The translations under genes were made by a program, and so were the position numbers. Positions 6,245 through 50,000 of a stretch of DNA of 64,000 nt are shown here, piece after piece. Location: assembly GCA_040954595.2 (NCBI GenBank), contig CM082583.2:1870925-1934924 (forward strand). The letters run 5' to 3'. The notes under the pieces were generated by a model that saw only the letters and a list, made by a program, of their open reading frames with translations, was not told the origin of the DNA and ran no database searches. The stretch comes from Balanoglossus misakiensis (taxonomy: Eukaryota > Animalia > Hemichordata). Position 1 is the first letter of the stretch; every line of letters begins with the position of its first letter.

Positions 6245-6417
6245 CTGTAATAAAAAAACACTCAAGGTCATGTTATACGACAAATATGATTTTAATCGAA
6301 TACCGCGGGCTATTAGTTTAGTGATCCATTCTTCATGTTGATATACGTTGAGCTACATGTATGCATGTGATAATCATATTACCTCCCAACGGATGTACGC
6401 CATTAGAGAAACATAAT

Positions 6418-15442: not shown

Positions 15443-17120
15443 TTAATTACGTCGGACCTTAAGGACAATGAAGCTATTTTGGCTTAGACACGCCTTTTTT
15501 ATGCGAGATGAAATACTATTATTAGAGACTTTAAATTTGCGTCACTTTCCGTTAAAACTAATTTCTTCTCGTCTTTTTGTGATGTCCCGTACTGCTCCTA
15601 TCTTTGGTCAAACTTTTCTGTGTATATGTTTAATACAACGAAAAAGGCTTTTTATCAGGTTTATCGTAAATTGTCAGGTATTAGTCAGTTCTTTTGTACA
15701 AAGTAATCCTCCTTCTGTTTGTGAATTCACCCCCTTTAACATTTGACAAAATTTTAAGAAAAACATGATGGGTTTTATCAGCAGATTGCCACTTGTAACG
15801 ACAGTTTTAAATATTTCAATTTCTTCACAAAGCAAATTATGGAAATGTCGGTGTAAATGGACTTTTTAACCACTGTTACTGTTATTGTTGTTTTTCCTTT
15901 TTATTATATGGATTTTATATCTGCAATAAACAATTTGAAGAATCAGGAATGATTGTACAGAAAATACACCTGTGTTTATTAAATTGATAAATTGTTTATA
16001 TAATTCTTTAATCCCCTTAACTGGTAATACTAATTAAATAATGAATTATATCAAAATAATAATTTTAATAATAATAGATCCGATTTACACGAAAATTCAC
16101 CATAGGGGTATCTTGGTTCAAAAAGAACAAAACTGATATCCATTTTGTGATGACATGTTTCTATGGCAACCATTATGGGGCTGAAACTAAAAATTGTTGT
16201 ACAAAATTCCATTAAAGCCTCAGTATTTCTCGTAGGGGCAAAATTGTGTTTGAAACGGCATCTATAATTTCTAAAAGTAGATGATAATTGATACTGAATC
16301 GAACAGTCATCATCCCCAGCTCTGCTGATAAACTCATACAATTTACAATATAACGAGTGAAGAATGAGTTTCTGTCCGGACAGAAAGTCACGTGAGTCAG
16401 GCTCCTGTTGACACACGGAATGCAACGTAATTACACTACTGCGCATGCGTACTCAAATGTACACAAGTATCAGCAAACAGCAACGGCGCGGCGTCCACGT
16501 CCGAGTCCATAGAGACTACGCGGAAGGGGTTTGGTCGCCCCAAATCTAGCGACTTAGCGAAGAAACGCGCAATTAGGGACGAGGTCATTTTCAAATAGGC
16601 GATACCACGCGAGGTTACCCCCCCCCCCTCGCCCTACCCTGGCAGTACAGATGGGAAAGCGATCAGCAGCGTTTAATGAGTTCGCATGCGTAATGTATCC
16701 CACTGAGATACCACACTGATTAGCACCTCGTTAGTGTACTGTTGTTTTATGTTGAAGGCTTTCTGATTTTGCTGACAGTCTTCTGCATGTACTCTTATGG
16801 GTGACAGGAGAGAGAAAATTGTGCAAGGTTATCAATACATGTAATGTCTGTTTTGAACTTTCATGTCTGTTTTGGACTGAGAGCTGTTGAATGAGGGAGA
16901 GATCTCGCAGGAACGATCACGAGGTCGCGCAGACGAAATCCTTTCATTGCGTGAAGCAACGATCTCACAATAAAATTGCAACATGAGCTGAGTAGGCCTA
17001 AGCGTCCTTTCCCGCCTACGCATGCCACAAGTGAATTTGAGAAAACTTGTTCCCCATGTATAAAATCTATATTCAACTGTTGTCTGGCTAGGGGTCCCAT
17101 CTTGAACGCCACCTTATGAG

Positions 17121-23857: not shown

Positions 23858-24971
23858 TTCAAGGGAAAGGATATTTTCAACGCAAAAATCCCGGGTTTTC
23901 CCCTTTTCCCCACCGCCGTGTTTATATGATCAGTGCATCGCAATCAAGCAATGACGTAAACACGTCACAGCAGTTACGATACTTTCTATCCTCAAGGACA
24001 CTTCTGATCGCCCGAACGACAACTGCCCGGTAAAAGTGTATCCGGGATCTGTCCTTAGAATGACCCCAACCGACAGTTCACAACGTGACCTTCGCTATAT
24101 ACATCAGCATAGCATTTATACATGTACATGTATGCTATGACACGTTAACATACTGTACGCATTCAGCAGTATTCATGCAGACATACCGATACTTGATAAG
24201 GTGGGGGGGGGGGGGGTAACAAGACGTCGGGTACATATGATAAATGCACATAACATGATAAATTTTCAGACATTGGTCACCATTATTTCGTCAGCTGGCA
24301 CTACGAGATGAATGCTCAGAGAAAGAAATTAAAAGGGGAATTCCCCGCATATGAACTCTGAATAACCCCAGTGAATCAGAGGCTGTTGACTACTAACGAT
24401 TGACAGCTAAAACACGGCTTAGTGTTATTCCGAGGGTAAGTTCACTGAGATGCAAAATTGTAATAAAGACGAATGCGCAAAATATTTCCGTATTTGCCTA
24501 CAAGGCAGTTGTGTGTTTTTAATTTTTTTCCGCAAATAATGATTGCATTATTATTTGGACCCAGTGGCGAGTTCGCACACCATTTAATTTCAGTTACCGT
24601 GATATTGTTGAATTAGATATATTTCTTACTTTATTAAAATGTAACAAAACTGATACCCATCAACATATTACATGTTTGCTAATAAGGATATTCGTATTTT
24701 TAAAAAATGAACAAATTCGCCACTAACATCGAAAGACATCTTTGGGTAGATTGAATGATGAATAAGGTATTTATAGTTGTACTGCGATGAAAACAATACT
24801 CTTGTTTTTCATTCCTTTTAGTTACACACATCACCACGCTGAGTTTGCGCGGTGAGGTTTTATGAGTCACGCGAAGCCTCGGCAGAAAACAGAACACGGA
24901 ACGCGCGCACACCCGCACAAAGACGCGACTGCGGCAGCGTACTATAGTCTATGCAATCAACCGGGTGTGAC

Positions 24972-27900
24972 ATGGCGCTATATGAAATCGTCGAGCGGGT
25001 CTTGAGCGGCGCGTTTAAAAAGTATGGACGGTTCCTCTCGCGTTGTCCGTGGCTAGTCTTGTTCGTTGCATTTTTCTTGACCGGAGTGTTGGGTTTGGGG
25101 CTTTTGTTTACGGAGTCGGAAACCAACCTCGAGTACCTGTACACGCCGGAGAACAGCCGGGCCGTGCAAGACCGACGCCGGGTGGCGGCTTTGTTTCCCG
25201 ATGCAAGCGGCTCTGACTTCTACCCTCATCAATCAGCGTCTCTCGGTGTGTACGGAGATGTGATTTTTCTTGGTCGAAGAAGAGGGCAGAACGTTTTAAC
25301 CAGCGAAGTACTCAGTCAATCTCTGGTGGTTGACGAGTACGTAGCTAACATATCGCTCATAGTAGACAATACAGAATACAGTTATTACAACGTCTGTGCC
25401 AGGCGATCCGGTTCGTGCTACGTAAGCGGTATACATAGCCTACTCAACGGTACCGATGTGAGCACTTTCCTACAAAAGCAACTCACTTACCCCGTTGTTG
25501 AAATTGGTGCCGAGTCGGTATACCTACCAGCTATTTTGGGCGGCGTAACAGTCAGCGGAAAGTCAACTGTACAGTCTGCCGAAGCGTTCCGTGTGCGTTA
25601 CTATCTCCGAACTGATGGAGAATACAAAGACATCAGTCTGTTGTGGGAGAAGGAATTTCTGGCGAGGTTGTCTGAATGGAACGGCACGTCCATCCAGATC
25701 GCGTACTCCACCTCCGAGAGTTTGAGCAGCGAGCTGAATTCGGGACTGTCGGGCGACATCGTCCGGTTTTCCATCACGTTCGCTCTGATGATCACCTACG
25801 CAACGCTGGTGTGTGGCACAGGGAACTGCATCACCACCAGGAGTTGGCTGGCTTGCACGGGAGTCATCGCCGCTGCTTTTGCGATCCTGGCGTCCTACGG
25901 GTTCTGTTCCTACATTGGCGTGAAGAAGGTCAGCGTGGTCGATATCATGCCATTCCTTATCGTAGGTAGGTTTCCCGATATTATTGTAAAATGATTAGGC
26001 AAACCCTGCATTCTTTCTTGTAGTTTCGATATCAAACATTTGCATAATCCACCTTTAACACATACAGTTCACATGTGACTGAAATTTCCTCCTTTCACGT
26101 CATAAGACAACGTATCACGGCTTCATAGTATATTTGGTCAGAATTATTGGTAATATGTCACAAAACACAACGAGCATATTAATGTTAAAATCCTGCGAAG
26201 AAGAAATGAACGAGTGCGTGTTTAGTTCACAGAACAACCCAGCCATCAGAGAGGTCGCTAAGGTTCCCGGATGTTTGGGTCCGATCTTACACGCAGAATC
26301 AGAAAGGCTGGTTTTAGTGAAAAGGGAAAGTAATGATAACATGTTGTAATAACATTCACAATTCATAAATATTTGTAACAGAAATGAAAACAATACTTGT
26401 ATCGTAGTGTCAAAAGCTTATATAAATAGTTGTAGACGCAGCACCCTTTTTAGACTGCAATATACATCTATACCATCCGTATGAGTGTTTGGGTTTCAAC
26501 GTTCTGTACAATATATTATAACCATGGAATTGAAAAAGATTTCTCCATGCCTACTACGTACTTGCTCCTTGCGAGGAATATAGTTTTATCAGCGCCCTTC
26601 CTCCCCCCCTCTCCCCCTCCCCCTCCCTTCTTTGGTTGATTGCTTCCTTCCTTCCCTTGTTATTTTATGTATTTTTGCGGCGTGGAAAATTGAATCCTAC
26701 TTTCTTCTCACTCTTCCATTTTTCTCTCTCCATGCTAATGATTACAGGAATCGGAATTGATGACATGTTTCTGTTAATGTCTGGATGGCTTGAAACCAAA
26801 CCCTCGGACAAAGTTGCGGACAGAGTCAGCACTGCTTTGAGCATCTCTGCTGTCTCAATCACAATCACGTCGTTGACCGACCTTCTGGCGTTCACGATTG
26901 GAGCGACCAATGTTTTCCCGGCTGTCCGCAATTTCTGCATATACACTGGTAGGTGGCGTATTTGTTAAGGTAGCACGCGCCTCGGGGACAGATTTTCAGT
27001 AAAAAAATTATAGTCCTTCAAAGCGTTTAAGGACTGGTCAGTTTCTTCGGCTGGGGGCGGTGTATTCTATTTTGTGGATATCAAAAAGTGAATGAGCCCC
27101 CCACCTCATTGAACATGGGAAAAGTGAGTGATCCCCCATCACCCAATTCCAAAACAGAGTGCCCTCCCTATGTATTAACCCCCAGACCGAGGAAACTGAC
27201 AAATCCATTTTCATTGCTGTAATAACGTGTGTGAAGGTCTTCACCGTTTTGTTTTCACACATAAATTAATACACTATTCCCCCCTAGAATTAACACAGGT
27301 ATTGGCCACCATTTTGAATTTCTCAATGTCGCTTTCTCAAACGCAAGTTTGCATCGTGGCCCCTGCATGTACATGTACATGTATACTAACTGAGAGGTGC
27401 GTGCATGCGTGGATGAAATATTGTACCTTTAGTCCTAAGTCTGGAAAGTACTGGTATAGACTGGATATGATGACGTACATTTAGGCTAACCCAACAATTA
27501 ATGATTTTAGCAGCAAAACATGCAGAGCGCGGGCTTTCATCAGTTTTTTTCTTGTCTGCTATTTTCAGGCTTCGCAGTGATATGGTGTTATTTAATGCAG
27601 CTGACGGTCTTTGGGAGTTTCATGGTGTTCCACACGAGACGGGTGAAGGATGAGAAACACTGCTTCACGGGCGCAAAGATACCGGACGAGGAATCGTGCA
27701 AAGCACGCGGCAAAGTTTGGTACTGTAACTGGATTGTCTGGTGCCGGGGAATAGAATCAAAGAGTATAGAAAAAGACGAAGAAGACAGAAGCATTTTCGA
27801 GCGGTTTTCGGGGCCATTTGCATCATTCGTGAAACGTTGGCCTGTTAAAATAGCAGTTTTAGTTGTGTTTGCAGGATACTTGGGCGTTTCTATATGGGGT

Positions 27901-28992
27901 GCCAGTCAGTTACAGCAAGGTCTTTTGTTAAATAATCTTGTCCCACCAAGCTCCTATCTCCATTCCTACCTTATTCTCGACAATGACTATTTCGACACTA
28001 ATGGTCCTACTATTTCAGTCGTAATGGACGGCCCCCTAAGTTACTGGGATGAAGGCGTACAGGGAAAGATCAACAACTTACTCACGGAGATTCAGAGTGA
28101 CAATGACATAGTCCAAGACTCCAGCATATCCTGGCTCGACAGTTTCTCAAGTTTCCATAACAGATCGCCTCCCAGTGACTTGTCTACTTTCATTTACTCC
28201 CTTCAATTTGAATTCCTCCCGGCTTTTCCTGTCTTTGACAATGACGTGAAGATTTCTGATGATGGACAGGTGATAGCAGCGCGATTCTATGTCCGTTCCG
28301 TTGGACTGACCAGTTCAACCGACCAAGGCCAGATGATGCTACGAGTTCGGAAAATAACCGACAGCAGTGATTTGCCTGCATTCGCCTACACAGGCGCGTT
28401 CATTTTTTACGAGCAGTACGTTCAAGTACTACCGAGCACATTGCTAACTGTCGGCTGCGCTGTGGCGGCCATGTTTGTCGTCTGCATTTTCTTCATCCCC
28501 CACCCCCTCTGTGTTATTTACGTCACCATAACCATGGTGATGATTCTTGTCGGTCTGTTTGGTTTCATGCATTTCTGGGGTCTTTCTTTGAGCTCCATCA
28601 CTATGATACACATAGTCATTAGCATAGGTTTCAGCGTCGACTTTTGTGCGCATGTCAGTCATGCTTTCATGAAGGCTGATGGGAAAGATCGCAACGAGCG
28701 AGTCACGGTGGCCCTGTCTCGTGTTGCAGTACCCATCTTGAATGGTGGAATCTCCACCCTCCTCGGTGTAATCATGCTTGTAGACGCCAGTTCTTACGTA
28801 TTTCAGTCATTCTTCAGGATAATGGTTCTCACTATCCTCTTTGGGGTCGCGCATGCGCTTCTTTTCCTCCCTGTCTTGTTGTCGCTGATTGGTCCTTCCA
28901 AATCAGAGAAGAAAGAAATTTCATCTGGAAAAACAAAGGTACATCTCGAGCCAATTGGAAATGATAATTTAGCGATAGAGATTAAAGAGTGA
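24972..28992 (+). CDS. PTCHD3: Patched domain-containing protein 3-like (sterol-sensing domain, RND-family multipass transporter), about 872 aa
   Basis: Exons 24972-25965, 26748-26948 and 27569-28992, with two phase-1 GT-AG introns, 2619 nt in total (alternative ATG at 24951). Motifs: EYLYTPENSRA, LLWEKEFL, MPFLIVGIGIDDMF (TM4 GxxxDD), SITITSLTD..F.IG, FIFYEQY, ISIGFSVDFCAH, HALLFLPVLLSL. The symbol indicates family; orthology is untested. Confidence 0.93.
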
Positions 28993-31329: not shown

Positions 31330-31453
31330 TTTGTATTGCTAATAAAACTTATATTTAAAATCTTTTCTTTCAAATGAAAAGTAGCAGGTTAGAAAAGAAT
31401 TGGTTAATCGATAAAGCTGATGTGCATAGTAATATAATATGTGACCTGATTAA

Positions 31454-32249
31454 GATGGGTCCCCCGGATCTTTTTGCCCGTTGCTATGGGCCTTTGTAGG
31501 ACATTACACCCCGATTTGGACTAAGCCGTTTTCAGAGTCTACCAAGGGGCTGGTAACTAGTTGAAAATCTGCACGATTGTGAGCGCGCGCCCCCTGACGC
31601 CATTGATATGCAAATTAGCTAGGTCAAATTTCAAAAGCCTAAGGCTTTTTATTCCGTGACCTCAAAAACGAACTTGATACGTATTCATTAGTTGCTTGAA
31701 CCAGGGAAGATCGTGACGGATTTTGTTTTCGAATATTATCGTTGTATCCTACGATTTCAGCATACCCGTACCACACCTGAAAAAATCATCGATTTTGGGT
31801 GTTTTTGGACGCACTCTTCCATCGGTATCGCTTCTTAGCACGACGAAAACCGAAAAAAACGATCCGTCACACTGTGCGGAAGTGCGTTCTCAACAAGCAG
31901 GTCAAATTTGGCTGGCCTACGTCGCCTGTGAAAAAAGCCTTAGGGATTTTCGTGAATGGTACAAAATCTCTGTGTACAAAACATTGGATTTTTAGCGTTC
32001 GATCCAGTTACTGTGGTTACAGGACGCGCACGCTATCACTGACCGCTGCTTTGCCGCATTAGCGTGGCGGCCTATGGCCGGGCGGTAGCTGCCGTAACCA
32101 TACTCGGACAGGGGGTGTGCACACAATCGTGCGTATTTTTAACTAGTTTCAAGCCCCTTGTCGGACGTTCATAACGGTTGCGATCAAAATTGAGTGTAGT
32201 GTCCTATAAAGGCCTATAGCAACGGGCAAAAAGATCCGGGGGACCCATC
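31454..32249 (+). mobile_element. Non-autonomous TTAA-targeting DNA transposon (Kolobok-like), copy 2
   Basis: Reverse-complement copy of 14663-15442; TTAA at 31450-31453 and 32250-32253. Confidence 0.88.
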
Positions 32250-33598
32250 TTAATTAATCTGTAATGAGAAAAACAGCAACTAGCTTCAATTCCGTAATAA
32301 GTCTAAATCTGAAAAGTTCTTAGGAAGCACTTGTTTAAATATTTCAATTGATATTTTGTTCAAGAAAATCATCTTACTTAACATTTTATCTTGATTAAAT
32401 GAACCCTACGTCATACACGATGACGTTTCAAAGTGTGAAACCATAACTAAAACATGAAAAATTATGTGTCACAAACAAAGTATTCAAAATTAATACAGTG
32501 TACAACTATACTATATTGAAAACTTAGTAAAGAAAGAAATTCTGTTTGTCAATACTATAGATAACTTCTACATTAAATGTACATGTACAAAGATCAGTTG
32601 AAATACGCTTTTCCTGTCAATCTTACGTGTTCTAGTAATGACACATATATATGCGTCATGGTACAGAAATGTGAATGATTAAATACATCATTTTACATAT
32701 TTTTAATCAAACTATTACGGACAAATCTAAATTGCTAGAGTTGAAAATAGAAAGAAGACTTTGAATATACAGTGTTCTCCCCAGAGCAATTTACGCATAT
32801 TGGCCTCTACTCTTTAATGTTGATAAGACAATGGAACGTAATTGACATAACAATTATTTATATAGTTATGCAAATTAGCCGCTACTCTATCAGAAATGTT
32901 TGGAGAACACTGATGTATAACATATTTCCTCTAGATCTTTTGCTCAAACAATTAACTTCGCTGGGCATGGAACCGGTACAAATATGTACATGTGAGTTTC
33001 CCAATGTCTGTAAACATAAGCCTTGGTATTCTATACAAAATTTTGGTACAGTATTGAGGAAGTTTAACAGTGGCCACGTTATCATAAACCATGTGTATAC
33101 TGATAACCATGAGCGAAACTAATCCTGCAATATAGGATCAACACAGATGCTAATCTAGTCCAGTCTATAAAGTGTAAAGTACTATAGTCACAACACAGTA
33201 TACAGGGGAGCATACAGAATCTCAAATAATTAGAGTTGCTGTGCCATGCCAAATAGAACTTGGAAAAAGAATATATATATGCAAATTTAATTGCTGAATA
33301 CAAAGTGTGTAAGTACAATTGCCATGAAAACAAAGTGAAGGCTGGTTGGCTTTATAAAAAGTTTTCTTTTCTGAAGACTTTGATGTTGATTATGGGCAGG
33401 CACAAGTGAGGCAAATATCGCATGGTCAAAACTAGGTCATAATTTGTCAAAAACTATAGTTACTAAAACACAGCAACGTGTTAGAGTCTGTATATGGTGC
33501 AACAAAATCACTTTCCTGATAATATATACGAATATACTCAACACAAATATTTAGCATATGTTCCTTTCTTTCTGTCGGGAAGATGAGTCGAAAACATC

Positions 33599-34264
33599 TC
33601 ATTGCAACCTCTTTTTCAGTTCCATTGCCCAGGTCAGCAACTTGTCATGGTCGACACTCTCAAAGGTCAATGTTCTCTGCTTTGTCTTGATCTCGAAAAC
33701 GCAACAACCTGAAATATAATACAAACAAACAACATCCAATATTTCACGTCTTGACGGAAGACTGCTTTAAATTGAATTTTTTGTCAAGAACATTAAATGT
33801 AAATCAATTTAAACCTGTCACTATCATAGTTCAGTCATAGTCCGTAAAACTCAATTGTGGGAAGATGCGAACTAGCTTGTCCCTATAGTTTGTGAGATAT
33901 AACTGTCGGAACTACAATTTGACTGTATAAACAATAGCCCACAGCCAAATAAACCAAACTTTACACTACACTTAACCAAGCTACACTGCAGCTTAGAATT
34001 TCGCAAATTAGTGCCTGCATGTACACTACCGCTTTGTTGTAAATTGTTGTTTGCTGATGTATGTCACCATACTTTTTGCAGCAGTTGTTTACTGACCTGT
34101 GAAGTTGTACATGTTGATGACAGCCACATTTTGGAGAGCTATTCTTCTGTGCCTGCCATTTGATTGCCAAGTCAAATACTTCTTGCCACTAATCGGACAT
34201 CTTTGGATACACAGTTGTGTTTTATACTTGTATCCCTTGGACGTTCTCTTTGTCAGCCTCACGC
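33599..34264 (-). CDS. Two terminal PKS exons encoding a PH-like domain
   Basis: Exon 34264-34097 (GVRLTKRTSKGYKYKTQLCI..KYLTWQS..RRIALQNVAVI) and exon 33708-33599 (CVFEIKTKQRTLTFESVDHDKLLTWAMELKKRLQ*); pyrimidine-rich acceptors; both introns are phase 1, matching the donor at 34685. Confidence 0.72.
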
Positions 34265-37200
34265 CTACGAAAAGAGAATCAAAGTGGGAAGAATGGTTAT
34301 TGGTGTTCTTAGTCTTTGGTGTGATGATGTGATATCGACTGCATTGGGCGAATTTAAGTACCCTGTTTATTTGAACCATTTTCTATCAGTAACTCCGTAC
34401 CCAAACCCTAACCACCAAACAATTGATCAATCGAGCGATCGATCGACCGATCAATCTATCGTATATCTATCAAAAGAGAAAAAGATGCAACTTAAGCCAG
34501 CTATCAACCAACCAAGAAATACAATTATTAGTCAGTCAGTCAGTCATGCAGTATTCGGTCGGTCAGTAAGTTAGTCATCCAGTCACCTAGTCAATAAGTC
34601 AGACAATCATGCATAATTAACAAAATTTATGTCTGATGACCTGACATATATCAATGTTCTAACTTTAGCGAAATGGTCAAATTACCTTCTTCCAATTCTG
34701 GCCAAGAATGCTGTTTTTCCCCCACCAATTTGGACATATTGAGGTGTTCCTGCTCCCCGATGAGTAAATCTATGTTTCCATCATGAGCCAGGTCACCGTT
34801 CATAACAACGTGGTCGGTATATTCTTTACAGTTAGGTTTCCCAACATCCTGCCTGCCATTAAGGAGAGCAGAATCCAAACTTCCTTGTACTGTGCCCTTC
34901 TGCGCATGTGTCCTATATTTTGTGGTGACGTCATTGAGACTTCGATAACTCTCACTTACACACGTCGCCATGAGGTCTCTGTAATCACTGAAAAACTGTT
35001 GACCCTCTTGGTGGCTGATGCATGAAGTGTTGAACCCACACCGGAGCGAAAGCGTGCCTCGGTTTGCATTTCTAACAACTTCAATTCTCGTAATTTTACT
35101 TAAACCGACGAGACCTCCTTCGACATGCTCGACACCATCAACCACGTCTGCATCTCGTACCTCTTGAAATGCTGTGTGTTCCTCCCATGTAATAACGTGC
35201 TGATTGAGGGATTTGGGTTGGTCATCACCAGTCACCTTGACACACTCACAGATTTTGGACGTTGGGTAAAGACTGTGATGGACTCCAGATTTCACCCGGT
35301 CTCCTATTTCTTTAAGGAAATCAATAATTGGCATTTCCTTGTTCCCGAAGGTAACTCGCAAGAGGACATTGTTGATAAAGAAACCAACGACTTCAGAGCT
35401 GACGGGGACATGCATACGCATATTGACTGGGTAAGTGACCAATATGTCATTGGACTGAGAGTAGATGTTTAGAAGCATGGCGTATACAGCAATCATCAAT
35501 TGGAATGGGGTAATTCCTATTTTCTGTGCAAACCGTTTCAGGTTTGCCGCGGCTGTTGAATTGATCTCCAAGACAACATGGCCTACATCTACAGACACAG
35601 GATCTTGCATCATCAATGAGAACCTCCCAGGGGTGACATCAACAGGAGTGGCAAATATGTCCTCCCAGAATTGTCTCAGATACGTCGCCTGGGAATGAAG
35701 GAGCTGGCTTCGCTGTGCTAAATACTCGCCGAACTCGAATGATCTCCTCTGCTCGAATGAGTTATGCAACATCACTGCAATCAGGGCACGCCTGAAATCT
35801 CTCATAAGCGTTGTCAGGGAGAAGAAATCACAGGATATGTTGTGAACAACAATTCCAACGTGGGTTATCTGCTTCTCAATTTCTGCGAGAAAGACTCTGA
35901 TGGGGAAGTCATTCTGCAAGTCGAAAGGTAGCTTGCTTGCATGTCGTATTGAAGATACAGCCTCATCGTCATTAGATAGGCCAACAAGATGTCGAACGTC
36001 AGGATTAAAGTCTGAATGGATGTGGTACATAACATCAAAGACGTCATTATTGGATTTGCCTTGTTGGTATTTGGCTCTAAGCATAGCATGCTGCTGCATC
36101 AGTAGCTGTAGTACATCATGCCATTCCTTCTCAGTTGTGTCGAAGCCATGGATCCGAAATATGGCATACATGTTATTTGTGATGTCTGGGGGTGTTGCCT
36201 GTGTTTTATGGAATCTAAGAGCTTGATCCTCAACAACACTGCCAGTAACAATATCTGATGCACTATGAAACAACTTAGATGCATTTTCTCCATTCATGAC
36301 ACTGCCAATGTTATCCTGGATGTACAGGGAGATTTGAGATAACGTTGCTGTTTCTGCCAGCAGGAGCGCTATTGGAATGTTGACACCACATTTCTTCTTA
36401 AGATGAGTCTGCATTGTCATTGCTTGCATGGAATCTAATCCCAATGCAACAAGGGAGACATCTTCAAGGATTTCTTCTGTTTCCATTGCGAGCACATTGG
36501 CAACATCTGCCTTAACAAGGTCGTGCAGAAATGATGGTTGCTGACTCAAACTGTTGAAAGGTATGTTCCCGCGGTTTGTACTTTCTACCACGGCATCACT
36601 CTTTCTCCTTGTGTCGATGAAATTCTCAAAGCGCCTGCTGATGTGTGCAAGTTCAGATCTGTGCAGATCTTGTGATATACGACTCCAATTAAACTCCCCA
36701 AATAATACCTGAGAAGGATTGTACTTCAAGGTATATTCGAAGCACTTAATGATGTCAGCCACTGGTAATGGTAAGTATCCCATTGTAGTCAGCATTTTCT
36801 TGACATCTTTAACACTGTCTATGATGCCAATGTTAAGAGCGCTCCAGTTGATGGTTTGACCAGGGAGACCATTGCTTCTTCTGTACTGTGCAAGCTGGTC
36901 TAGAAATGCATTTCCAGCACCATAATTTGCCTGCCCTCTATTGCCAAAAACTGCAACAGTAGACGAATGCATCACAAAGTAATCCAGAGGATCATCCCTG
37001 GTTAGCTGATGGAGATTCCATGCACCAAGAATCTTTGGACGAGTTGCAGTGATGAATTCCTCATCTGACATATTTATCAACAGACGGTCTGCCAACACTA
37101 CTGCTCCATGGAATACTCCTTTGATGGGAATGGCACCCAACTGTTTTCTAAGGTTCTGCAAAACCTTTTCCAAGGCCTGGACATCACTAACATCTGCCTG

Positions 37201-40200
37201 AAGAAACCATAATCGTGTGCCTCCCATTTCTATCTCACTAAGTTCAGCTGACTTGCTTGTATCTGGGTGACTTCTGGACACTATTGCAAGGTGCCCTGCG
37301 CCTCGTTCAGCCATGTATTTACATGTCTCTAACCCCAGGCCCTTTGTACCCCCAACAACCAGGTAGCAGGCATTCTTGTGAAAGAGTCGATCTACATCTG
37401 CATGAACCAAGCCTCTAGAACGCATATTAAGTATAGGTATTGATTCATTGTCAATGGGTGGGACCACAGTACTGCACTCAGACTGATCGAAGTTGAATTC
37501 CTTTATGTTGAGTAGTTCTACATCACTTGTCTGTGACATTTTCTTCGACCACTTTACAACTTTTGGAATGATTTTATCCAGATGCTTTGCCTGGAGTACT
37601 TGCTTGGTGCTTACTGTAATAAACTTCATGTCTGGTCTTAACGTACCAAGGTAATCCGTTTGTGAGTCGTCTCCTCTTTCCACATTTACTACTACTGAAC
37701 CAATTCGAAGGTTGCTCAGAATCCATTGGTTCGATTTGTGTGACAGTTTTCCAAGATGGAGAAACACCACCTGTTGAAGCCCATTGGTTTTAGGTTCATC
37801 AGCATGACTGAAATGGTTACTAGATATTTCTTTGAAACCACACCTCCTGGCATATGACGAGAACAGACTAGTGAGACAGTTGTATTTCTTGGTGCTTTGT
37901 ATGATCAGCTGTCTTACAGTAGGGTATTGATGCAAGTTAACCACTAGCACTTCCCACAAGAGAACCATCAGGGACAGGCATGGTATTCCCCTCATCCACT
38001 CTGGGAGTACACTTGACTTCACAATCAGTGATTCTGGCACATTAGCTATTGATGTAAGCTTCATCGGATAGCAAATGTGTACTTTTGTACCTTGTGCAAA
38101 ACTACTATCAGAAGACAATATTTCGCCGAGGCAGTCAATCCCAATGACTGCGTGTCTGTCATTGCTGTCTTCTGACCATGGCAATGATCCTTTCAGTGAC
38201 AGCCCAGTCATAGTCACTTGAAATAACTCAGGGTCATGTAACCTGGCCTTTTGTATACTAGCACACACAAACTTCCCAGATGGGGTAGTGATGGCATCTT
38301 CCACTGCATAGTGTAGCTCAAGATTTAGAACACTCTCAGGAAGTGTTGACATCACTTCTGTTGGAAGATCTGGCTGGACTCCTATTACACGCTTCTTGAA
38401 ATAGGCATCATTTGGCTTGACCCTCTTCAGCTTATTGGCATAGACTGTAGAACCATGTATGACATACTCTGAATGCTGGTTTACTTGGCTTTCAAAAGAT
38501 ATCTGGGCCATTGTTGCAACTTCTACCTCAGAACCCTCACTCAGATCAATTAGTGTTGTCTTGTCATAGGTACCTTCACGGAGCAAACATCGAACCATTC
38601 CCCAAACAGGAGCACCGATCAACTGAATATGATTTGACTTTGGCATCGTAGATCTGAGTGCTGACCTTTCTGTTGTTTCAAGCTTGCCTTGGACACCACG
38701 GGTTACTACAGTCAATGGACACATTGCACCATTTGTGGCAAGAAACTTCACAATATGTTTAAGTGCCATGCATGTGGAATTAATGTAGTCGCACAGGAAT
38801 CCCTCGATGTTTTCCTCACCATCACGGATGCTCCAGAAGTAAAATATGTGTTGAAAAGTGTTGATGTCTCTCTGTACGTTTTGTAGTATTAGACCAATAT
38901 CTGTGTGTATATCAGAATACTCTACTATGTACGAATCACTGCTTATGAACTTCTCCAAAGAAGACACTATGCCCATGCTATCGGCAAACACAATGCAATT
39001 TGGAGGCAGGCCCTTCTCAGTACCATCTGTTTTGCTTGTTGTAACTGTGAGATTCGGGATACCATGTCTGAGCCACTCCATTTCATAAGCAAGTTGACCA
39101 ATTACTCTGCCATCGTTTTCATCCAGTACCTTTGCCATGATGTCTGTGCATTCTGCAACAACTTCACCTGACTCGTTCATGATGACTGCATTAAAACTAG
39201 CCAAGTAGTCTGACCTGCGCATCAGCCTGATGTAAACAAGGACACAAGGGTCAGGTTTCCCAAACACTAACACATTCCCAATCGAAATGGGGAAGCATGG
39301 TTTAGAATTCTTGTTGCCTTGGTGGTTTGGATCATATGTAGGCACAGCCGTAGCTTGGAGGACACCATCGAATATGACAGGATGAATAACTGTGTTACGC
39401 AGTTGGTCTAAAAGTTCTTCTGGTAATGACAGCATCACAACAGCTTCTTCTCCATTCCTCCAGCACTGTGAAATAGGTCGCATGGTTGGCCCATATGAAA
39501 AGCCAAAGCTTTCCAGAAAGTCATAAACTTGCTCCACATCTATCTCATCACCACAACGTGACCTGATTTCAGAAATATTGAAGCGGCTGGTTGGAGTTTG
39601 TTTCTTCGAGCTCACCCCGATGACACCATCAGCAGTTTTTATGTCACCGCAACAAACTTTGAAGGAATGGCTTTTTAAACCGTCACTTTGGTCCTCAAAT
39701 TGAACGTAGACATCCTTTTCTTCCTCTGTCAGCATCAGTGGTTTCAGAAACTCAATGGACAATCCGCAGCATTTTTGCCGTGTGTTTGGCAACAACGACA
39801 AGCAAGCTTCAAGGGCCAATTCACCATAGACTACACCAGGAACCACCACAGAACCACCAACAATGTGATCATACACAAATGGGAAGTCTCCTCTATTGAT
39901 TGTACATTTGTATGCCACATCATCAGCGGAGACCCTGGTCACAAATTGGCAATCAGTCCCACTGTCTTTCTTTATTCCCATTCTATACAGCTTCGAGGCT
40001 TCTGGTTCGTACCAGTGTTTGGCTTTGTTGAACTGATAAACCGGAAGATCTGCTGGAATTCGTTGACTGTGTTTGTGATATGAACCCCAGTCTATCTGGA
40101 TGCCTGTCTGGTAAAGCTGACAAAGGGTATCCAAGAGAGTAACGTGGCCCCTTTTCTCTTTCATAGATGGAAGAACTCTACCACTACATTTAGACACAAT

Positions 40201-43200
40201 TTCACTAATATTCCTCTGTAATGCAGGTTTGGGACCAACTTCTATTGTGATGTTTTCTGCATCTTCCAGGATGGCTGCCTCCATTGCCTTCGAGAATTGA
40301 ACTGCTTCTCGTACATTTCGTTTCCAATAGTGAGCATTTGTAAAGTCACCATCCACAGCAAGCCTACCTGTGACAGTGGAGTAAATCTCTGCCAGCTCTC
40401 CATTATCTGTAGTTTCCAGAGGATTTATCGAGTTTAGGAAGTCATTGCATATTGGCTGCACGTGGTGTGAGTGAAATGCTGTGGATACGTTGAGTCGACG
40501 GAAAAATATGTCCATACCCTCCTGTTGGTTTTCGATTGCAATCAGATTTTCGATTACAGTGATGGCGTCTTCATCTCCGGATAGTGTGAAAGACGTAGGT
40601 GAGTTAGTGGCAGCAATTTCCACCCGTCTGTCCACAGCTTGGCAATATTCATCAACTTTCTCGGCAGATGTGTTGCCCACAGCAGCCATTCCTCCTCCTG
40701 ACACTTTCTGCAGAAACTGACTCCTGTAGAATATTATCTTGACTGCGGTTTGGAGGTCTAGCTTCCCTGCTGCATATGCTGCCGCAACCTCACCAACTGA
40801 GTGACCGATTATCGCATCTGGTTTGATACCCCATGATACCCACAGGTGGTGAAGAGCCACTTCGATAGCAAATATCGCTACCTGTTTCATAGAGCCAGAG
40901 GCCAACTCTCCATGTCCGACAATATCAACAAGAGAATGGTCGGTGTATTTTGACAGTAGGCCAGCAATTTCTTCTATCGCCTCTCTAAAGGTGGATTCTT
41001 CAGCGAACAAATCACTTCCCATTCCTTTCCAGTCTGTACCCATTCCAGGAAAGACAAAAATAATTCTCTTTCGTCTGACAGTATTCGATGGATTTTGGTG
41101 ATATATCGCCTCTTCCGCCTTTTCCAAAATCTGGCATAAGCCGTCACTGTTAGTGGCGTGAATTGCAAATCGGTGGTTGTTGTAGTGTGAGCGCCGAGTA
41201 GTTGATGTATACGCCAAGTCGTCAATGAAATCGCTTGACTTGTTCTTTAATACATTTTTCAGGTACTGCATGGTCAACTTCATTGACCGCTTCGACTTTG
41301 CTGACAGGGTGATGATTGGGTGAACCACTGGTTTACTTTTTCGTAGGTCAACGTATTCTCTGACGATAGCATGTGAATTCGAACCACCAAAACCAAACGA
41401 ATTCACACAGGCTAATCGACCACGACCATCCTCTGTCTCCCATGCCGTTACCCTCGTTGGGATTTGTAACTGGAGGTCTTCCAAGTCTATTCGGCTGTTT
41501 GGCTTGTCGAAATGAATGGTCGGCGCGATCGTTCGGTTCTTGATCATCAGAAGCACTTTGATCAACCCAGCGACACCAGCTGCAGACTCCAGGTGAGCAA
41601 TGTTGCTTTTCACCGATCCCATGTAGCAGGGTGAAGCCCCGGGCTTTCGAGCTTTGCCTATGAAGTTGCCCAGGGACGATGCCTCAATGGGGTCCCCTAC
41701 AGGTGTGCCAGTACCATGTGCCTCGATGTAAGTCACGTCACAAGGGTCAACGTTATATTTAGTGTAAACTTTGTGTAGAAGCTGTTCCTGTTGTTTGGAA
41801 GAAGGGGCCGTTATGGGTGTAGCAAAGTGACCATCCTGGTTGCAGCCAGTTCCAACGATTCCCCAAATTCTGTCACCATCGCTTATGGCCTAATTTTCAA
41901 ATTAAAGTAAGTGTTAGTTTCAAAGACACAACCAATTTCTTAACCATCTTCTTACGTTTCTAGAGGAATGTGGTTGGAAATTCCAACTCATGATAGGTGG
42001 GTACGACGATATACCTATTACAGACTGCAAGTCACTAAATAGGTGCAAACAATAGGCAATTCATTAGTCTGTGTGAGTTTGCATACGAGACCAAACCTTC
42101 TCTTGCTGGTGGGGAAATATCACAAAATGCCTGTTATTTTTTTACCTTCTGCAGAGACTTCAAAATAACAACGCCACAGCCTTCTCCTCTTGTGTAACCA
42201 TCTGCCTTGTCAGAAAACGGCTGACACAGACCTGTCGATGATAACATGTTTGCTCTGCACAAGGTAACAAATACTTTTGGATCCAGAATAATGTTGACGC
42301 CACCACACACAGCTATTTCACAGTCTCCTAAAATGCAAATAATAATGTGTTGGTGACGTTGATGTTGGTTCAGAACGGCCTTAGTGTAACTATATACCCT
42401 GGGGAAAGAGAACAAACGACTGTGGAAAAGATCTGAGATTGTGCTGGATAATACCTTTGTTTTCACGCATTATGTCCATACATTCGACGGTTCGACGTTA
42501 AACAAACGCACCTGCACGTATACCTTGACATCCAAGATGGATGCCTATCAGGGAGGACGAACAGGCTGTATCCACACAAATGGATGGCCCCGTCAAGTTC
42601 AGGGCAAACGACAGGCGGTTTGCTACGATAGACGTTGCAGCGCCAGTCACTGTGTAATTGTCCCGCTCGCTCACGTCTGAACCAATCAAATTCCCGTAGT
42701 CATTGGCCATCACACCTAAGCAATATTAAGGGAAATTTCTGGTCTGCTTGTATGTGCTATCGCATAAAAAATATTGTAGTTATAGTTATACTCGAGCAAG
42801 ACCTTCCATCAGTAGCACTGGCAAACCTGTACATAATTATGGGTATCATTATAAAAATCCTCAAATCAGCATTACCTCAGAAGTATGTGAGGACTGCATG
42901 TACTATGCTTTTTGAGGAAATCACCACCGACACTATTGTTAACTGAAGTAAAGTCTACCGAGCCAAATAACGAGAATATATTGGCTGCCTTCGGAAGTAA
43001 TTTCTAAATTTCACGTATACTGCGATTTGCCATTTCAGGACGTATCTTTGACGAAATTAGTCCAAGTCTTACCGATGTAGCAACCGACTTCCATCCCTGA
43101 TAGTTTGTCCATGGGAAACCCGCCGTTTTCCAAAGCCCGATATGTACATTCCAGCAACACATATTGTTGTGGATCCATTCGGGCTGCCTCATCGTCGTTG

Positions 43201-43569
43201 ATTTGAAAGAATCGATTGTCCCATTCAGTCAGCCTAGTGATATAATGGAAGGACCATCAAAGCCCCAGTAACTCTTACTTTTCGTCAGATTTTAGTATTT
43301 TTTTCTGACTCGTCCATTAATTAAATTATCATTTATCATCCAAAAACACAATACCTCTCGATAAATGCCGCATGCCTGGCATAAGATTTGCCTTTGGCAC
43401 TTCTGTCGCTGCTGTAGAAAGCGTCGACGTTCCATCTGTCCTTGGGTATTTCAGTCACATGGTTTTCCCCGTTCACCAAGACTCGCCAGAACTCATCTAT
43501 GTCGTTCGCACCAGGGAACTTGCAGGCCAACCCCACGACTGCAATGGCGTCTTCCGAGTCTGGATCCAT
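33599..43569 (-). CDS. pks: Animal type I (iterative) polyketide synthase, KS-AT-DH-pseudoER-KR-ACP-condensation-like-PH-like, about 2747 aa
   Basis: Phase-consistent GT-AG exons: 43569-43355, 43233-43073, 42715-42512, 42327-42146, 41889-34686, 34264-34097, 33708-33599 (8244 nt). KS: DTACSSS, EAHGTGT, KSNIAHLE. AT: GHSVG, AFHS. DH: HIVGGSVVVP, DGVLQ. KR: GGTKGLG, GQANYGAGN. ACP: GLDSM. C-like: HAMLR, PFDLQNDFPIR, HNISCD, VGFFINNVLLR. Confidence 0.93.
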
Positions 43570-43826: not shown

Positions 43827-44073
43827 GTAAATGTGAACTGTTTGATTGTTATCTGAGAGGGCTTCAGTTGTAGAAAACTACATGTTGTCTTTCTTTCAAA
43901 CATTTCCCGGATGTGCCCCCGGTTCCGCCGGACACAAAGTTCAACAAGCGAATACAGAACTTTTAAACTTGTTTAGTCAAACAGGCATTTGTTGTATTAC
44001 ACATTTTCCACGTGACCATCTTCTTTGTCCCGCGAGAATGCTGATCAAAGCATCGGTTGCTTATACTCCGAAG

Positions 44074-47000
44074 GCCATATTGGATTTTCTGAAAAAATTC
44101 AAATCTCAGATCTCAGAAACTACAAGTCAGATCGACTTCAAATTTGGTATACAGGTAGACTACCTTCTGCCCATCATTTTTGTAATTGGAAATTTTGCTA
44201 CAATGTTGCAGTTTTTTTGCTACAATTTTTTTTCTGAAATCTGGCTTAAATTTCAAAAATCTTCTTCTCCAGAACCGGTGATAACCGAGTCACGCGGTTT
44301 GGGGTATGTGGTCACCTAACTGATGTCTATCAAGTTTGCGAAGATCATTGTGATTGGTCGAAGATTATGGCGGCCATATTGGATTTTAGAAAAACCATAG
44401 TTAAACTCCAAAAATCTTCTTCTCCAGAACGGGCGATGACTGAGTCGCAAGATTCGGGGAGTATGGTCACTACACTGATGTCTATCAAGTTTGCAAAGAG
44501 CATTGTGATTGGTCGAAGATTATGGCGGCCATATTGGATTTTGTAAAAAGCAGTGAAAAATTGAAATTCCTTTTTCTAGTCTAAAAATTGATAGCATACA
44601 AATTCTTTTTATGGATATCAATCGTCATGTGACTAAAATATGTTACAATTTTTTGGCGATTTTTCACATGACCTTTGACCTACTTATCATGCGTTATTAT
44701 TTCTGCATATCTAATTCCAGGCTAACCTATAGGGCTAGACGTTTGGTTTTTGATGAATGTGGATTAGTGTGTGATCAAAATATTTTGCTACTTTTCATGA
44801 CCCCTTTGACCTCTGCTGACCTCATTAATTATGTGCATAGCTAATTACAGGCGAACCAATAGAGCTAGAGGTTTGGTTTTTGTTGGACACAGACCAGTAT
44901 GGGATCAAAATTTTTTGCCCAAATGTTGCGTGACCTCTGGTGACCTTTGACCTACTTTCGCATATCTCAGCATCCAGAGCAGATACAGCCATGGCATTTG
45001 GTAGGATGGGACCAAAATGTAAAGCCACATTTTTGAGTCACCTGTGACACCTGCTGACCTCATTAAATATGCACATACCTAATTACAGGCGAACCTATAG
45101 AGTTAGAGTTTTGTTTTTTGTTGGACATGGACCAGTATGGGTAAAAAAAAAATTGCCCAAATGTTGGGTGACCTCAGGTGACTTTTGACCTACTTCACCC
45201 TATTTCAGCAGCAAAAATACACACCTCCTTGTTATGTCATGAGATAATACATCGGATAGAAAATTCTGTTTCTTCTCATTCACACTGTGCATATATAATT
45301 CAAGATCAGCGCTTGGGCCCGACAATGCTGCTTGCAGCTTTAATTAGGGCCCAAGCGCAAGCAAGCGCTTGGGCCCTATTGGTTTCGTTGGGGTTTTTAG
45401 GGCCCAAGCGCAAGCCAGCGCTTGGGCCCTATTGGTTTCGTTGGGGTTTTTCTTTCTTCTTTCTTTATTCTTGTGTCAATTCTTTGTCGCTCTAGATCTC
45501 AGACACCACTGCAGGTACACTTCTGAAACTTGCTACAGTGGTCAAGGTCAATGAGTAGTTGTGCATTGAACCCATGAATTTTTAATTAGTCACATGACCT
45601 GGCGGCCATCTTGGATTTTCTGAAAAAATGCAAATCTCAGATCTCAGAAACTACAAGTCAGATCGACTTCAAATTTGGCGTGCAGGTAGACTACCTTCTG
45701 TCAAACATTTTTGTAATTGGAAATTATGCTGTCAATGTTGCAGTCTTTTTGCTACAATTTTTTTTCTGAAATCTGGCTTAAATTTCAAAAATCTTCTTCT
45801 CCAGAACCGGTGATAACCGAGACATGGGGTTTGGGGTATGTGGTCACCTAACTGATGTCTATCAAGTTTGCGAAGATCATTGTGATTAGTCGAAGATTAT
45901 GGCGGCCATATTGGATTTTCGAAAAACCCTAGTAAAATTTCAAAAATCTTCTTCTCGAGAACCGGCGATAACCGAGTCACAAGATTTTGTGTGTGTGGTC
46001 ATTCAACAGATGTCTATCAAGTTTGCGAAGAGGAATGTGATTGGTCGAAGATTATGGCGGCCATATTGGATTTTGTGAAAAACAATTAAAAAGTAAAAAT
46101 TCCCTTTCTAGCCTAAAAATTGATAGCACAGAAATTCTTTTTATGGATATGAATCATCATATAACAAGAATAAGCTATAAATATTTTGGTAATTTTGGCA
46201 ATGACCTTTGACCTACTTTTGACGCATCAATTTTCTGCATATCTAATTCCAGGCTAACCAATAGGGCTATAAGTTTGGTTTTTGATGTATGTGGATTTGT
46301 ATGTGATCAAAAAATTTTGGTACTTTTCATGACCCCTTTGACCTCTGCTGACCTCATTAAATATGCGCATACCTAATTACAGATGAACCAATAGACCTAG
46401 AGGTTTTGTTTTTGTTGGACAGGACAAGTATAGGGTCAAAATTTTTTACCCAAATTTTGGGTGACCTCTGGTGACCTTTGACCTAATTTCGCAAATCTCA
46501 GCATCCACAGCAGATACAGCCTTGGCGTTTGGAGGTATGGGGCCATAATGAAAAGCCAAAGTTTTGGGTCACCTGTGACACCTGCTTAACTCATTATTTA
46601 TGTGCATACCTAATTCCGGGCTAACCAAAAGGGTTAGAGGTCTGGTTTTTGTTGGACATGGACCACTATGGGTCAAAATTTTCTGCCCAAACTGTGGGTG
46701 ACCTCTGACCTACTTAACACTATATCAGCACTAAACATAGATATAATCTTGATATTTCATGGGATAAAACACAGCATTATGTTTCTACTCATTAATTATG
46801 TGCATATCTAATAATCAGATCAGATAATAGAGCTTGGGCCCGGACAATGCTGCTTGCAGCTTTAATTCTGTCTTTCTTTCTTCTTTCTTTACGGGCCCAA
46901 GCCAAGCCAGGCTTGGGCCCGTATTGGTTTCGTTGGGGTTTTTTAGGGCCCAAGCCAAGCCAGGCTTGGGCCCTATTGGTTTCGTTGGTATTTTTCAGTC

Positions 47001-50000
47001 TTTCTTTCTTTCTTTCTTTATTCTTATGTCAATTCTTTGTCGCTCTAGATCTCAGACACCACTGCAGGTACAGTTTTCAAACTTGCTACAGTGGTCAAGG
47101 TCAATGAGTAGTCGTGCATTGAACCCATGAATTTTTAATTAGTCACGTGACCTGGCGGCCATATTGGATTTTCTGAAAAAATGCAAATCTCAGATCTCAG
47201 AAACTACAAGTCAGATCGACTTCAAATTTGGCGTGCAGGTAGACTACCTTCTGTCAATCATTTTTGTAATTGGAAATTATGCTGACAAAGTTGCAGTTTT
47301 TTTGCTACAATTTTTTTTCTGAAATCTGGCTTAAATTTCAAAAATCTTCTTCTCCAGAACCGGTGATAACCGAGACACGGGGTTTAGGGTATGTGGTCAC
47401 CTAACTGATGTCTATCAAGTTTGCGAAGATCATTGTGATTGGTCGAAGATTACGGCGGCCATATTGGATTTTCGAAAAACCCTAGTAAAATTTCAAAAAT
47501 CTTCTTCTCAAGAATCGGCGATAACCGAGTCACAAGATTTGGTGTGTGTGGTCATTAAACAGATGTCTAACAAGTTTGCGAAGGGGAATGTGATTGGTCG
47601 AAGATTATGGTGGCCATATTGGATTTTGTGAAAAACGATTAAAAAGAAAAAATTCCCTTTCTAGCCTAAAAATTGATAGCACAGAAATTCTTTTTATGGA
47701 TATGAATCATCATATGCCAAGAATAAGCTATAAATATTTTGGTAATTTTGGCAATGACCTTTGACCTACTTTTGACGCATCATTTTTCTGCATATCTAAT
47801 TCCAGGCTAACCAATAGGGTTATAAGTTTGGTTTTTGATGTATGTGGATTTGTATGTGATCAAAAAATGTTGCTACTTTTCATGACCCCTTTGACCTCTG
47901 CTGACCTCATTAAATATGCACATACCTAATTACAGGTGAACCAATAGACCTAGAGGTTTTGTTTTTGTTATACATGGACCAGTATGGGGTGAAACTATTT
48001 TGCCCAAATGTTGGGTGACCTCGGGTGACCTTTGACCTACTTTTGCATATCTTGACATCCACAGCAGATACAGCCTTGGCGTTTGGAGGTATGGGGCCAT
48101 AATGAAAAGCCAAAGTTTTGGGTCACCTGTGACACCTGCTTACTCATTATTTATGTGTATACCTAATTCTGGGCTAACCAAAAGGGCTAGATATCTGGTT
48201 TTTGTTGGACATGGACTACTATGGGTCACAATTTTCTGCCCAAATTGTGGGTGACCTCTGGGTGACCTTTGACCTACTTAACACTTTATCAACACCAAGC
48301 ATAGATATAACCTTGATATTTTATGGGGTAAAACACAGCATTATGTTTCTACTCTTTAATTATGTGCATATCTAATAATCAGATCAGATAATAGAGCTTG
48401 GGCCCGGACAATGCTGCTTGCAGCTTTAATCTTTCTTTATTCTTGGTTCACTTCTTTGTCGCTCTAGATCTCAGACACCACTGCAGGTACAGTTCTCAAA
48501 CTTGCTACAGTGGTCAAGGTCAATGAGTAGTAGTGCATTGAACCCATGAATTTTTAATTAGTCACATGACCTGGCGGCCATCTTGGATTTTCTGAAAAAA
48601 TGCAAATCTCAGATCTCAGAAACTACAAGTCAGATCGACTTCAAATTTGGCGTGCAGGTAGACTACCTTCTGGCAATCATTTTTGTAATTGGAAATTATG
48701 CTGTCAATGTTGCAGTTTTTTTGCTACAATTTTTTTTCTGAAATCTGGCTTAAATTTCAAAAATCTTCTTCTCCAGAACCGGTGATAACCGAGACACGGG
48801 GTTTGGTGTATGTGGTCACCTAACTGATGTCTATCAAGTTTGCGAAGATCATTGTGATTGGTCGTAGATTATGGCGGCCATATTGGATTTTCGAAAAACC
48901 ATAGTAAAACTCAAAAAATCTTCTTCTCCAGAACGGGCGATAACTGAGTCGCAAGATTCGGGGAGTTTGGTCACTTCACTGATGTCTATCAAGTTTGCAA
49001 AGAGCATTGTGATTGGTCGAAGATTATGGCGGCCATATTGGATTTTGTTAAAAGCAGTGAAAAATTGAAATTCCTTTTCCTAGTCTAAAAATTGATAGCA
49101 TACAAACTCTTTTTATGGATATCAATCGTCATGTGACTAAATTATGTTACAATTTTTTGGCGATTTTTCACATGACCTTTGACCTACTTTTCACACGTTA
49201 TTATTTCTGCATATCTATTTCCAGGCTAACCTATAGGGCTAGACGTTTGGTTTTTGATGCATGTGGATTAGTGTGTGATCAAAATATTTTGCTACTTTTC
49301 ATGACCCCTTTGACCTCTGCTGACCTCATTAATTATGCACATAGCTAATTACAGGCGAACCAATAGAGCTAGAGGTTTGGTTTTTGTTGGACATGGACCA
49401 CTATGGGAACAAAATTTTTTGCCCAAATGTTGGGTGACCTCTGGTGACCTTTGACCTACTTTCGCATATCTCAGCATCCAGAGCAGATAGAGCCTTGGCA
49501 TTTGGCAGGATGGGGCCAAAATGTACAGCCACATTTTTGGGTCACCTGTGACACCTGCTGACCTCATTAAATATGCACATACCTAATTACAGGCGAACCT
49601 ATAGAGTTAGAGTTTTGTTTTTTGTTGGACATGGACCAGTATGGGTAAAAAAAAAATTGCCCAAATGTTGGGTGACCTCAGGTGACTTTTGACCTAGCAA
49701 GCGCTTGGGCCCTATTGGTTTCGTTGGGGTTTTTAGGGCCCAAGCGCAAGCCAGCGCTTGGGCCCTATTGGTTTCGTTGGGGTTTTTCTTTCTTTACGGG
49801 CCCAAGCCAAGCCAGGCTTGGGCCCGTATTGGTTTCGTTGGGGTTTTTCTTTCTTTCTTTCTTTCTTTCTTTATTCTTGGTTCACTTCTTTCGCGCTCTT
49901 GATCTCAGACACCGCTGCAGGTACAGTTCTCAAACTTGCTACAGTGGTCAAGGTCAATGAGTAGATGTGCAGTGACTTGTGAATACTTAATTAGTCACGT

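Follow-up and report, generated by a model that had tools for sequence, protein, structure and literature searches.

We analysed a window of 64,000 nucleotides from Balanoglossus misakiensis and found an acorn-worm-type PKS gene in which the acyl carrier domain (ACP) is followed by a condensation (C) domain with the core HNISCDF, where asparagine stands in place of the catalytic histidine. The altered core is real and common to orthologues, and for its mechanism we propose, with moderate confidence, that the folded His-less domain is a likely non-amide-forming helper of an iterative PKS and a likely survivor of a PKS-NRPS hybrid, that it is not the release enzyme, and that the chain would be released in trans. 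This reading combines sequence comparison, structure models and analogy with known systems.

The window represents animal DNA with introns, and a minus-strand open frame at 34651-41889 comprises 2412 codons. Based on homology and splice sites, we predicted a seven-exon PKS model of 2747 residues, in which all six introns are GT-AG and no internal stops occur. The features of this gene and its neighbour are as follows:

43355..43569, minus strand: PKS exon 1 with the ATG and KS start (tblastn to Ptychodera P0001; GT donor; in-frame model)
43073..43233, minus strand: PKS exon 2, KS (tblastn to P0001; AG/GT ends; in-frame model)
42512..42715, minus strand: PKS exon 3, KS active-site Cys in DTACSSS (tblastn to P0001; in-frame model)
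42146..42327, minus strand: PKS exon 4, KS (tblastn to P0001; in-frame model)
34686..41889, minus strand: PKS exon 5, 7204 nt, with KS end, AT, DH, pseudo-domain region, KR, ACP, C domain and linker (Pfam)
36319..36519, minus strand: ACP, GLDSM motif with Ser (PF00550, E 5.7e-10)
34924..36174, minus strand: condensation domain, LCL-like fold, Asn for the catalytic His (PF00668; AlphaFold; Foldseek)
35824..35844, minus strand: HNISCDF core, H2270, N2271, D2275 and F2276 in the 2747-aa model (alignment; identical in Ptychodera P0001)
34685, minus strand: exon 5 donor GTAATT (splice-site reading)
34097..34264, minus strand: predicted exon 6, first half of the PH-like domain (tblastn, HMM, AG/GT, phase 1 at both ends)
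33599..33708, minus strand: predicted exon 7, end of the PH-like domain, including a helix that carries a Trp, and the TGA stop (tblastn, HMM, AG acceptor, in phase)
24948..28992, plus strand: transporter gene of the Patched family (RND / sterol-sensing) in at least three coding blocks, facing the PKS tail-to-tail (Pfam and PDB matches)

The active-site motifs of the PKS core, whose meanings are established, are intact in the sequence model (KS Cys and His, AT Ser, DH His and Asp, KR Tyr, ACP Ser), and no Pfam match to an ER or MT domain was found in the 536-residue DH-KR interval. The closest protein is the PKS of Ptychodera flava with 54% identity over the big exon, followed by those of Glandiceps talaboti and Saccoglossus kowalevskii; from these nearest proteins, we classified the gene as an acorn-worm-type PKS. 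Among the 150 matches listed of 30521 in a HMMER search, one, from Glandiceps, was close, while the 120 listed of 3504 homologues of the KS region were dominated by multi-module bacterial PKSs and included no named animal row. In a quick LG+G4 tree of KS-AT and KR columns with long branches (24 rows including 9 bacterial outgroups), all 15 animal proteins form one group (support 100), and the window PKS falls with frog, fish and mollusc PKSs against the bacterial outgroups (support 100). At the KR start (37042-37409), both DNA runs contain a second, diverged contig, which suggests another allele or a paralogous PKS.

Pfam placed a PP-binding domain at 36519-36319 and a Condensation domain (PF00668) at 36174-34924 (E 6.7e-31, 107.9 bits, and 113 bits in a second scan, against a cut-off of 30.6). 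Together with the codon reading (H, CAC 35844-42; N, AAC 35841-39; I; S; C; D, 35829-27; F, 35826-24), this bears out the initial annotation of an HNISCDF core in a C domain behind the ACP; its span of 35821-35844 contained one extra Phe codon, the motif itself occupying 35824-35844. In a HMMER alignment, HNISCDF lies on HHSISDG of TycC (2jgp), which puts Asn at the second, catalytic His, as originally claimed, and the retained His at the first position, so that the objection that this residue might be the catalytic one does not apply. The Phe in place of Gly after the Asp is not unique, being found in AB3403 (4zxh; HHALMDF) and in 6/902 non-animal C domains.

AlphaFold modelled the window domain as a complete C fold (pLDDT 90.8, pTM 0.89; 34-row alignment). 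Of 500 Foldseek matches counted, 323 reached E<=0.001; TM scores to NRPS C domains were 0.73-0.81, and the matches listed comprised NRPS C domains, the MokA CON domain, X domains and one Cy domain with similar scores throughout. By sequence and model, the domain thus belongs to the NRPS condensation-domain superfamily PF00668; an ESM Atlas search gave generic bacterial C clusters. Identity to Ptychodera amounts to 51% for the C domain, 50% for DH and 44% for the pseudo region. At H351 (window ~35199), 9/11 animal rows and 0/23 bacterial alignment rows have His, making this a candidate animal-specific functional residue. A relation to WS/DGAT or PapA-type acyltransferases, raised initially, found no support, nor did BAHD membership: at E<=10 only PF00668 and a weak DUF5347 match appeared, the Foldseek matches listed were NRPS-type C domains, and Asn, not the His of a catalytic HxxxD, stands four residues before the Asp.

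We also rejected a sequencing error or private allele as the source of the motif, which the initial annotation had named as a danger to its claim, because the motif is the same in the Ptychodera orthologue and positions 35821-35844 are unchanged in contigs from 2/3 DNA runs that differ elsewhere (one sample, possibly the window's own source). The further claim that no A, T or TE domain follows was confirmed: tblastn with three NRPS proteins matched the window only at the ACP and C region, and no second carrier domain was found in the window. No Pfam match to AMP-binding or thioesterase domains occurred in 122/191 window stop-to-stop frames of at least 70 aa, the remaining 69/191 all lying inside or upstream of the PKS, and tblastn with the A-domain remnant of Saccoglossus (see below) gave no match in the window. 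The domain therefore has neither the second His of a canonical amide-forming C domain nor, within the window, a downstream A-T module to supply the acceptor.

Across animals, the second-His position turned out to be variable. The window and Ptychodera share HNISCDF, Glandiceps has NHTACDF and Saccoglossus HHIACDL; the other copies read HPICFDL (P0301), HRMAVDL (P0302), SHTAFDL (P0305), NSIGFDM (Gigantopelta and P0308) and HAVVLDL (P0021 and P0179). In these 11 animal C domains, two pairs of which are near-copies, the second His is present in 3 (Glandiceps, Saccoglossus, P0305) and absent from 8, where its place is taken by at least five different residues. A mollusc transcript that ends after the C domain reads SCVVFDF by eye (PMC10764717, Supplementary Data 11). 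For comparison, we used 902 non-animal C domains (912 full-length of 994 domain hits, minus 10 animal), a set gathered by likeness to the query and leaning to ordinary NRPS domains: 898/902 have the second His and 0/902 an Asn, with Gly after the Asp in 767 and Phe in 6. The core Asp is kept in 11/11 animal and 902/902 non-animal domains. The His>Asn change is thus shared with Ptychodera and not conserved family-wide; His loss is common and repeated in the animal PKS-C family, with Asn as one outcome. Since at least five different residues occur, no special chemistry seems tied to the Asn. We found no paper on the animal C-domain motif in the open-access literature (subscription papers lie outside the search), and the accessible parts of PMC11414698, PMC10531068 and PMC10951248 contain nothing on it.

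In a C-domain tree of 47 rows (11 animal and 36 non-animal, the latter being 14 best-scoring and 22 random; unrooted, quick LG+G4, long branches), the 11 animal domains lie on one side of a branch with an SH-aLRT of 99. C-bearing and C-less animal members are interleaved in the PKS tree, where 3 changes are needed and 43/500 shuffles match this number, so that clustering by C label is not beyond shuffles. From the one-sided C branch and the interleaved PKSs, we consider the C domain to be probably old and repeatedly lost, namely in vertebrates, Mytilus and Batillaria.

The initial annotation took the C domain to be terminal, which was not borne out: two further in-phase predicted GT-AG exons encode a PH-like domain. 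The Glandiceps and Saccoglossus proteins share a C-terminal region of ~100 residues, and tblastn with the Glandiceps tail matched the window at exon 6 (E 2.5e-06) and exon 7 (E 9.8e-06). With an HMM of the two orthologues, these exons ranked first and second of 1650 six-frame segments (E 1.4e-08 and 8.3e-08; next 0.23). The predicted splices run from donor 34686 to acceptor 34264 and from donor 34097 to acceptor 33708, both in phase 1, with a TGA at 33599; without this splicing, the read-through frame stops at 34651. The predicted product of 96 aa is 36% identical to Glandiceps and 31% to Saccoglossus, and its homology scores of 108 and 159 compare with shuffle maxima of 53 and 55 in 2000.

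The fold was modelled on the Saccoglossus copy and assigned to the window copy by homology. Seven strands followed by a helix at the C-terminus make up the model (pLDDT 80.3); the Foldseek rows listed are PH-fold chains (GRK2, PLC-beta, ASAP1 and TAPP1; E 0.003-0.04), and VIA-align to the PH-fold chains listed gave Z scores of 10.1-11.4 and an rmsd of 2.2-3.7 over 85-107 residues. Pfam and PDB sequence searches did not detect a PH domain (TAPP1 PH only, E 0.72), and an ESM Atlas search with exon 6 gave no usable match. From the homology and the model, we predict that the PKS ends in a PH-fold domain. Its basic charge (19 K/R and 8 D/E in 96 aa) is only suggestive of membrane binding; many PH folds bind proteins. 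The Ptychodera RefSeq protein ends directly after the C domain, as does one mollusc transcript, so in these cases the PH domain may either be dispensable or have escaped annotation; the proteins that group with molluscs come from single-exon gene calls, and their ends are uninformative for its presence. In the open-access literature searched (subscription papers lie outside it), no paper on a PKS-fused PH domain was found.

Saccoglossus (HHIACDL) carries a remnant of an adenylation (A) domain between its C domain and its PH-like end. The remnant aligns weakly to bacterial NRPS A domains, and compared with these it has other residues in place of the P-loop, A5 and A7 motifs and lacks the small subdomain; an Ebony-like origin of the remnant is conceivable. 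As Saccoglossus keeps both His residues together with this decayed A domain, we regard the C domain as a likely leftover of an ancestral PKS-NRPS hybrid. The animal layouts form a series of PKS-C(HH)-decayed A-PH, PKS-C(NH or HN)-PH, PKS-C, and PKS alone, which we infer is best read as stepwise loss from such a hybrid. The Saccoglossus gene model (P0300, residues 100-135) lacks the KS exon carrying the active-site Cys; the exon was probably missed in gene prediction, and this would account for the KS* label given in PMC4604110.

The neighbouring transporter matches the Pfam families Patched, Sterol-sensing, NPC1_MLD and MMPL and, by PDB sequence, PTCH1 (E 3e-37) and NPC1 (E 3e-33). We assigned it to the Patched family; PTCHD3-type is a designation by synteny only. 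It keeps GIGIDD and GFSVD, which we take to be the GxxxDD and GxxxD motifs of RND transport, and looks transport-competent from its sequence. The arrangement in the window resembles the published PKS-PTCHD3 synteny, which the available texts describe from molluscs to vertebrates (PMC9894158), in wall lizards with co-duplication (PMC10990284) and in the crown-of-thorns starfish (PMC12330192). An export role for the neighbour would be our own addition, as these three papers, in their available text, note the synteny and propose none.

Other elements lie around the two genes. An 820-bp inverted repeat pair (14659-15453 and 31443-32253, 93%) flanks the Patched-family gene region, and a weak reverse-transcriptase fragment was found at 14315-14527 (plus strand). 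Weak ARM (ARMC5-like, E 2e-4) and Neuralized (E 1e-8) matches at 1485-6272 (minus strand) are probably exons of one neighbouring gene. Self-blastn revealed ~16 kb of degenerate ~1.5 kb repeats, 85-99% alike, at 44073-59740, starting ~500 bp upstream of the PKS start codon. At the end of this array, a minus-strand frame (59700-60389) matches DUF3504 (E 8e-23), a domain that is often part of tyrosine-recombinase transposons.

According to the mechanism that we favour, the PKS would condense malonyl units, and KR and DH without a working ER would yield an unsaturated, polyene-type acyl chain, as in the bird relative MuPKS, which makes polyenes with an inactive ER (PMC6334511, accessible text). 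The C domain would dock the ACP-bound chain and hold or shape it, a task that might need the fold and the Asp and not the His, comparable to fungal LovB-type domains. The chain would then be released by a trans partner or spontaneously, as may be the case in C-less animal PKSs, while the basic PH-fold C-terminus could tether the PKS to a membrane or to a protein partner and the Patched-family neighbour may export the lipid at the membrane. The missing TE, correctly observed at the outset, is normal here, since C-less relatives also have none: in the text available, the TE-less and C-less medaka PKS ends at its ACP and rescues otoliths (PMC4604110), and a trans partner was proposed for an animal PKS group without release domain (PMC6334511). 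Between the two options first considered, non-canonical release and a scaffold with a partner in trans, the second is favoured over dedicated Asn chemistry, because the second-His position varies and only the Asp is invariant. The Asp is, however, also invariant in ordinary C domains (902/902), so its retention shows fold, not function. The PH-like exons, the decayed A domain of Saccoglossus and the Patched-family neighbour had escaped the initial annotation.

A C domain that itself acts as a non-canonical catalyst, releasing or cyclising the chain (to an amine or alcohol, or pericyclically) through positioning, the Asp or other residues, appears possible and rather unlikely. Its place directly behind the ACP with no TE, its good conservation and fold, and the His at H351 in 9/11 animal rows and none of the 23 bacterial ones would fit such a role, and Glandiceps and Saccoglossus keep the catalytic His, so that close relatives may still be catalytic. 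The C domain of ClaE is essential, and its authors, in the accessible text, attribute the need for the Asp to a distinct role in catalysis and not to scaffolding (PMC13492342). However, the second-His position varies freely across animals, C-less orthologues function without any release domain, and no WS/DGAT, PapA or BAHD family match was obtained at E<=10. Improbable in our view is a functionless, slowly decaying relic of a lost NRPS module, kept by its position between ACP and PH or pending deletion. The decayed Saccoglossus A domain, the repeated C losses and the very long branches of the mollusc-grouping copies (13-21% identity) point that way, but the C domain is as conserved to Ptychodera as the active DH, despite the absence of a PH domain behind it in the Ptychodera model, and this speaks against plain decay; moreover, all 11 copies are full-length with the core residues W195, P202 and D141. 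Least probable, and very much so, is that one His suffices, the first being catalytic in HN and the second in NH copies, and that amides or esters are still formed. Hemichordates do always retain one His (HH in Saccoglossus, NH in Glandiceps, HN in the window and Ptychodera), yet neither is left in Gigantopelta and P0308 (NS) or the mollusc transcript (SC), both losses are easy, since His>Asn is a single-base change, and the first His of canonical C domains is structural and faces away from the tunnel.

The locus bears on the release step and the products of PTCHD3-linked animal PKSs, a family that is needed for fish otoliths and is the source of parrot pigment. Beyond the helper role of the C domain, the locus suggests that this family likely began as a PKS-NRPS hybrid, and the PH-fold domain on the PKS points to membrane-coupled synthesis and export. 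More speculatively, and with little confidence, animals might carry an ancient two-gene module for making and exporting lipids, composed of an RND transporter of the PTCHD3 type and a PKS derived from a PKS-NRPS hybrid. In acorn worms, a fused PH domain would recruit the synthase to the membrane, and the His-less C domain would hand a polyene to an acceptor or exporter; the module would be a eukaryotic counterpart of bacterial PKS-acyltransferase-MmpL systems, and the series HH with A, NH and HN would represent peptide-module loss in progress. The new elements are the family-wide pattern of His loss, the decayed A domain, which hints at the origin, and the predicted PH-fold domain fused to the PKS. 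Moreover, nature provides a series (HH with a decayed A domain, NH, HN, neither His, no C domain) that is suited for probing how a His-less C domain functions, in parallel to the LovB domain in fungi.

Several known systems resemble the window gene in part. Lone C domains behind a PKS also occur in the TwmB type, where amide formation relies on the canonical HHxxxDG; the window domain differs in lacking the catalytic His. Hai and Tang reportedly described these fungal PKS-C amide synthases in 2018 as a PKS with a lone C domain, a truncated PKS-NRPS. The glycopeptide X domain (4tx2, 4tx3) shares a C fold without the catalytic His (Foldseek E 6e-26, TM 0.79), but it belongs to bacterial NRPSs, where it is a docking platform recruiting P450s, and the Foldseek score does not single it out for the window domain.

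Within animals, medaka OlPKS, budgerigar MuPKS, duck ApPKS, clam MpES and wall-lizard Pks share the order KS-AT-DH-pseudo region-KR-ACP, the lack of a TE and a Patched-family neighbour; the vertebrate PTCHD3-linked PKSs end at the ACP, whereas the window gene adds a C and a PH-like domain. The same PKS-C layout and C-domain clade are found in Saccoglossus LOC100373061 and the mollusc PKS-C proteins (PMC10764717). LOC100373061 was described as KS-AT-DH-KR-ACP-C-AMP (PMC4604110) and mollusc PKSs as occurring with and without C (PMC10764717), the accessible text of both discussing neither the motif nor a PH domain. Saccoglossus shares the PH-like end with the window (31% identity) and differs by its HH core and its decayed A domain; the window gene has HN, and no A remnant is present.

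The LovB, MokA (6ad3) and ClaE group resembles the window gene in layout, as these are iterative reducing PKSs ending in ACP-C, with the second His replaced, the Asp kept and no TE in cis. In the accessible text on ClaE, the C domain is essential and works in trans, R>A and R>H are tolerated, the Asp is needed, and a separate TE belongs to the minimal set (PMC13492342). By structure, the MokA CON domain ranks sixth in Foldseek (E 5e-26, TM 0.77), without outscoring X domains or ordinary C domains of NRPSs. In contrast to the fungal type, the window gene is an animal gene with introns and an animal PKS core, not a fungal HR-PKS; it has HNxxxDF, not HRxxxDG, with Asn for Arg, F for G and a replacement that is not fixed family-wide (the animal relative P0302 reads HRxxxDL); no MT match was found, no trans-ER or TE gene was seen in the window, and a PH-like domain follows. 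By analogy, the window C domain may nevertheless work like a LovB-type C domain, a likeness by layout, as fungal CON sequences are absent from both trees: it, too, stands behind the ACP of an iterative PKS with a conserved Asp and no TE in cis.
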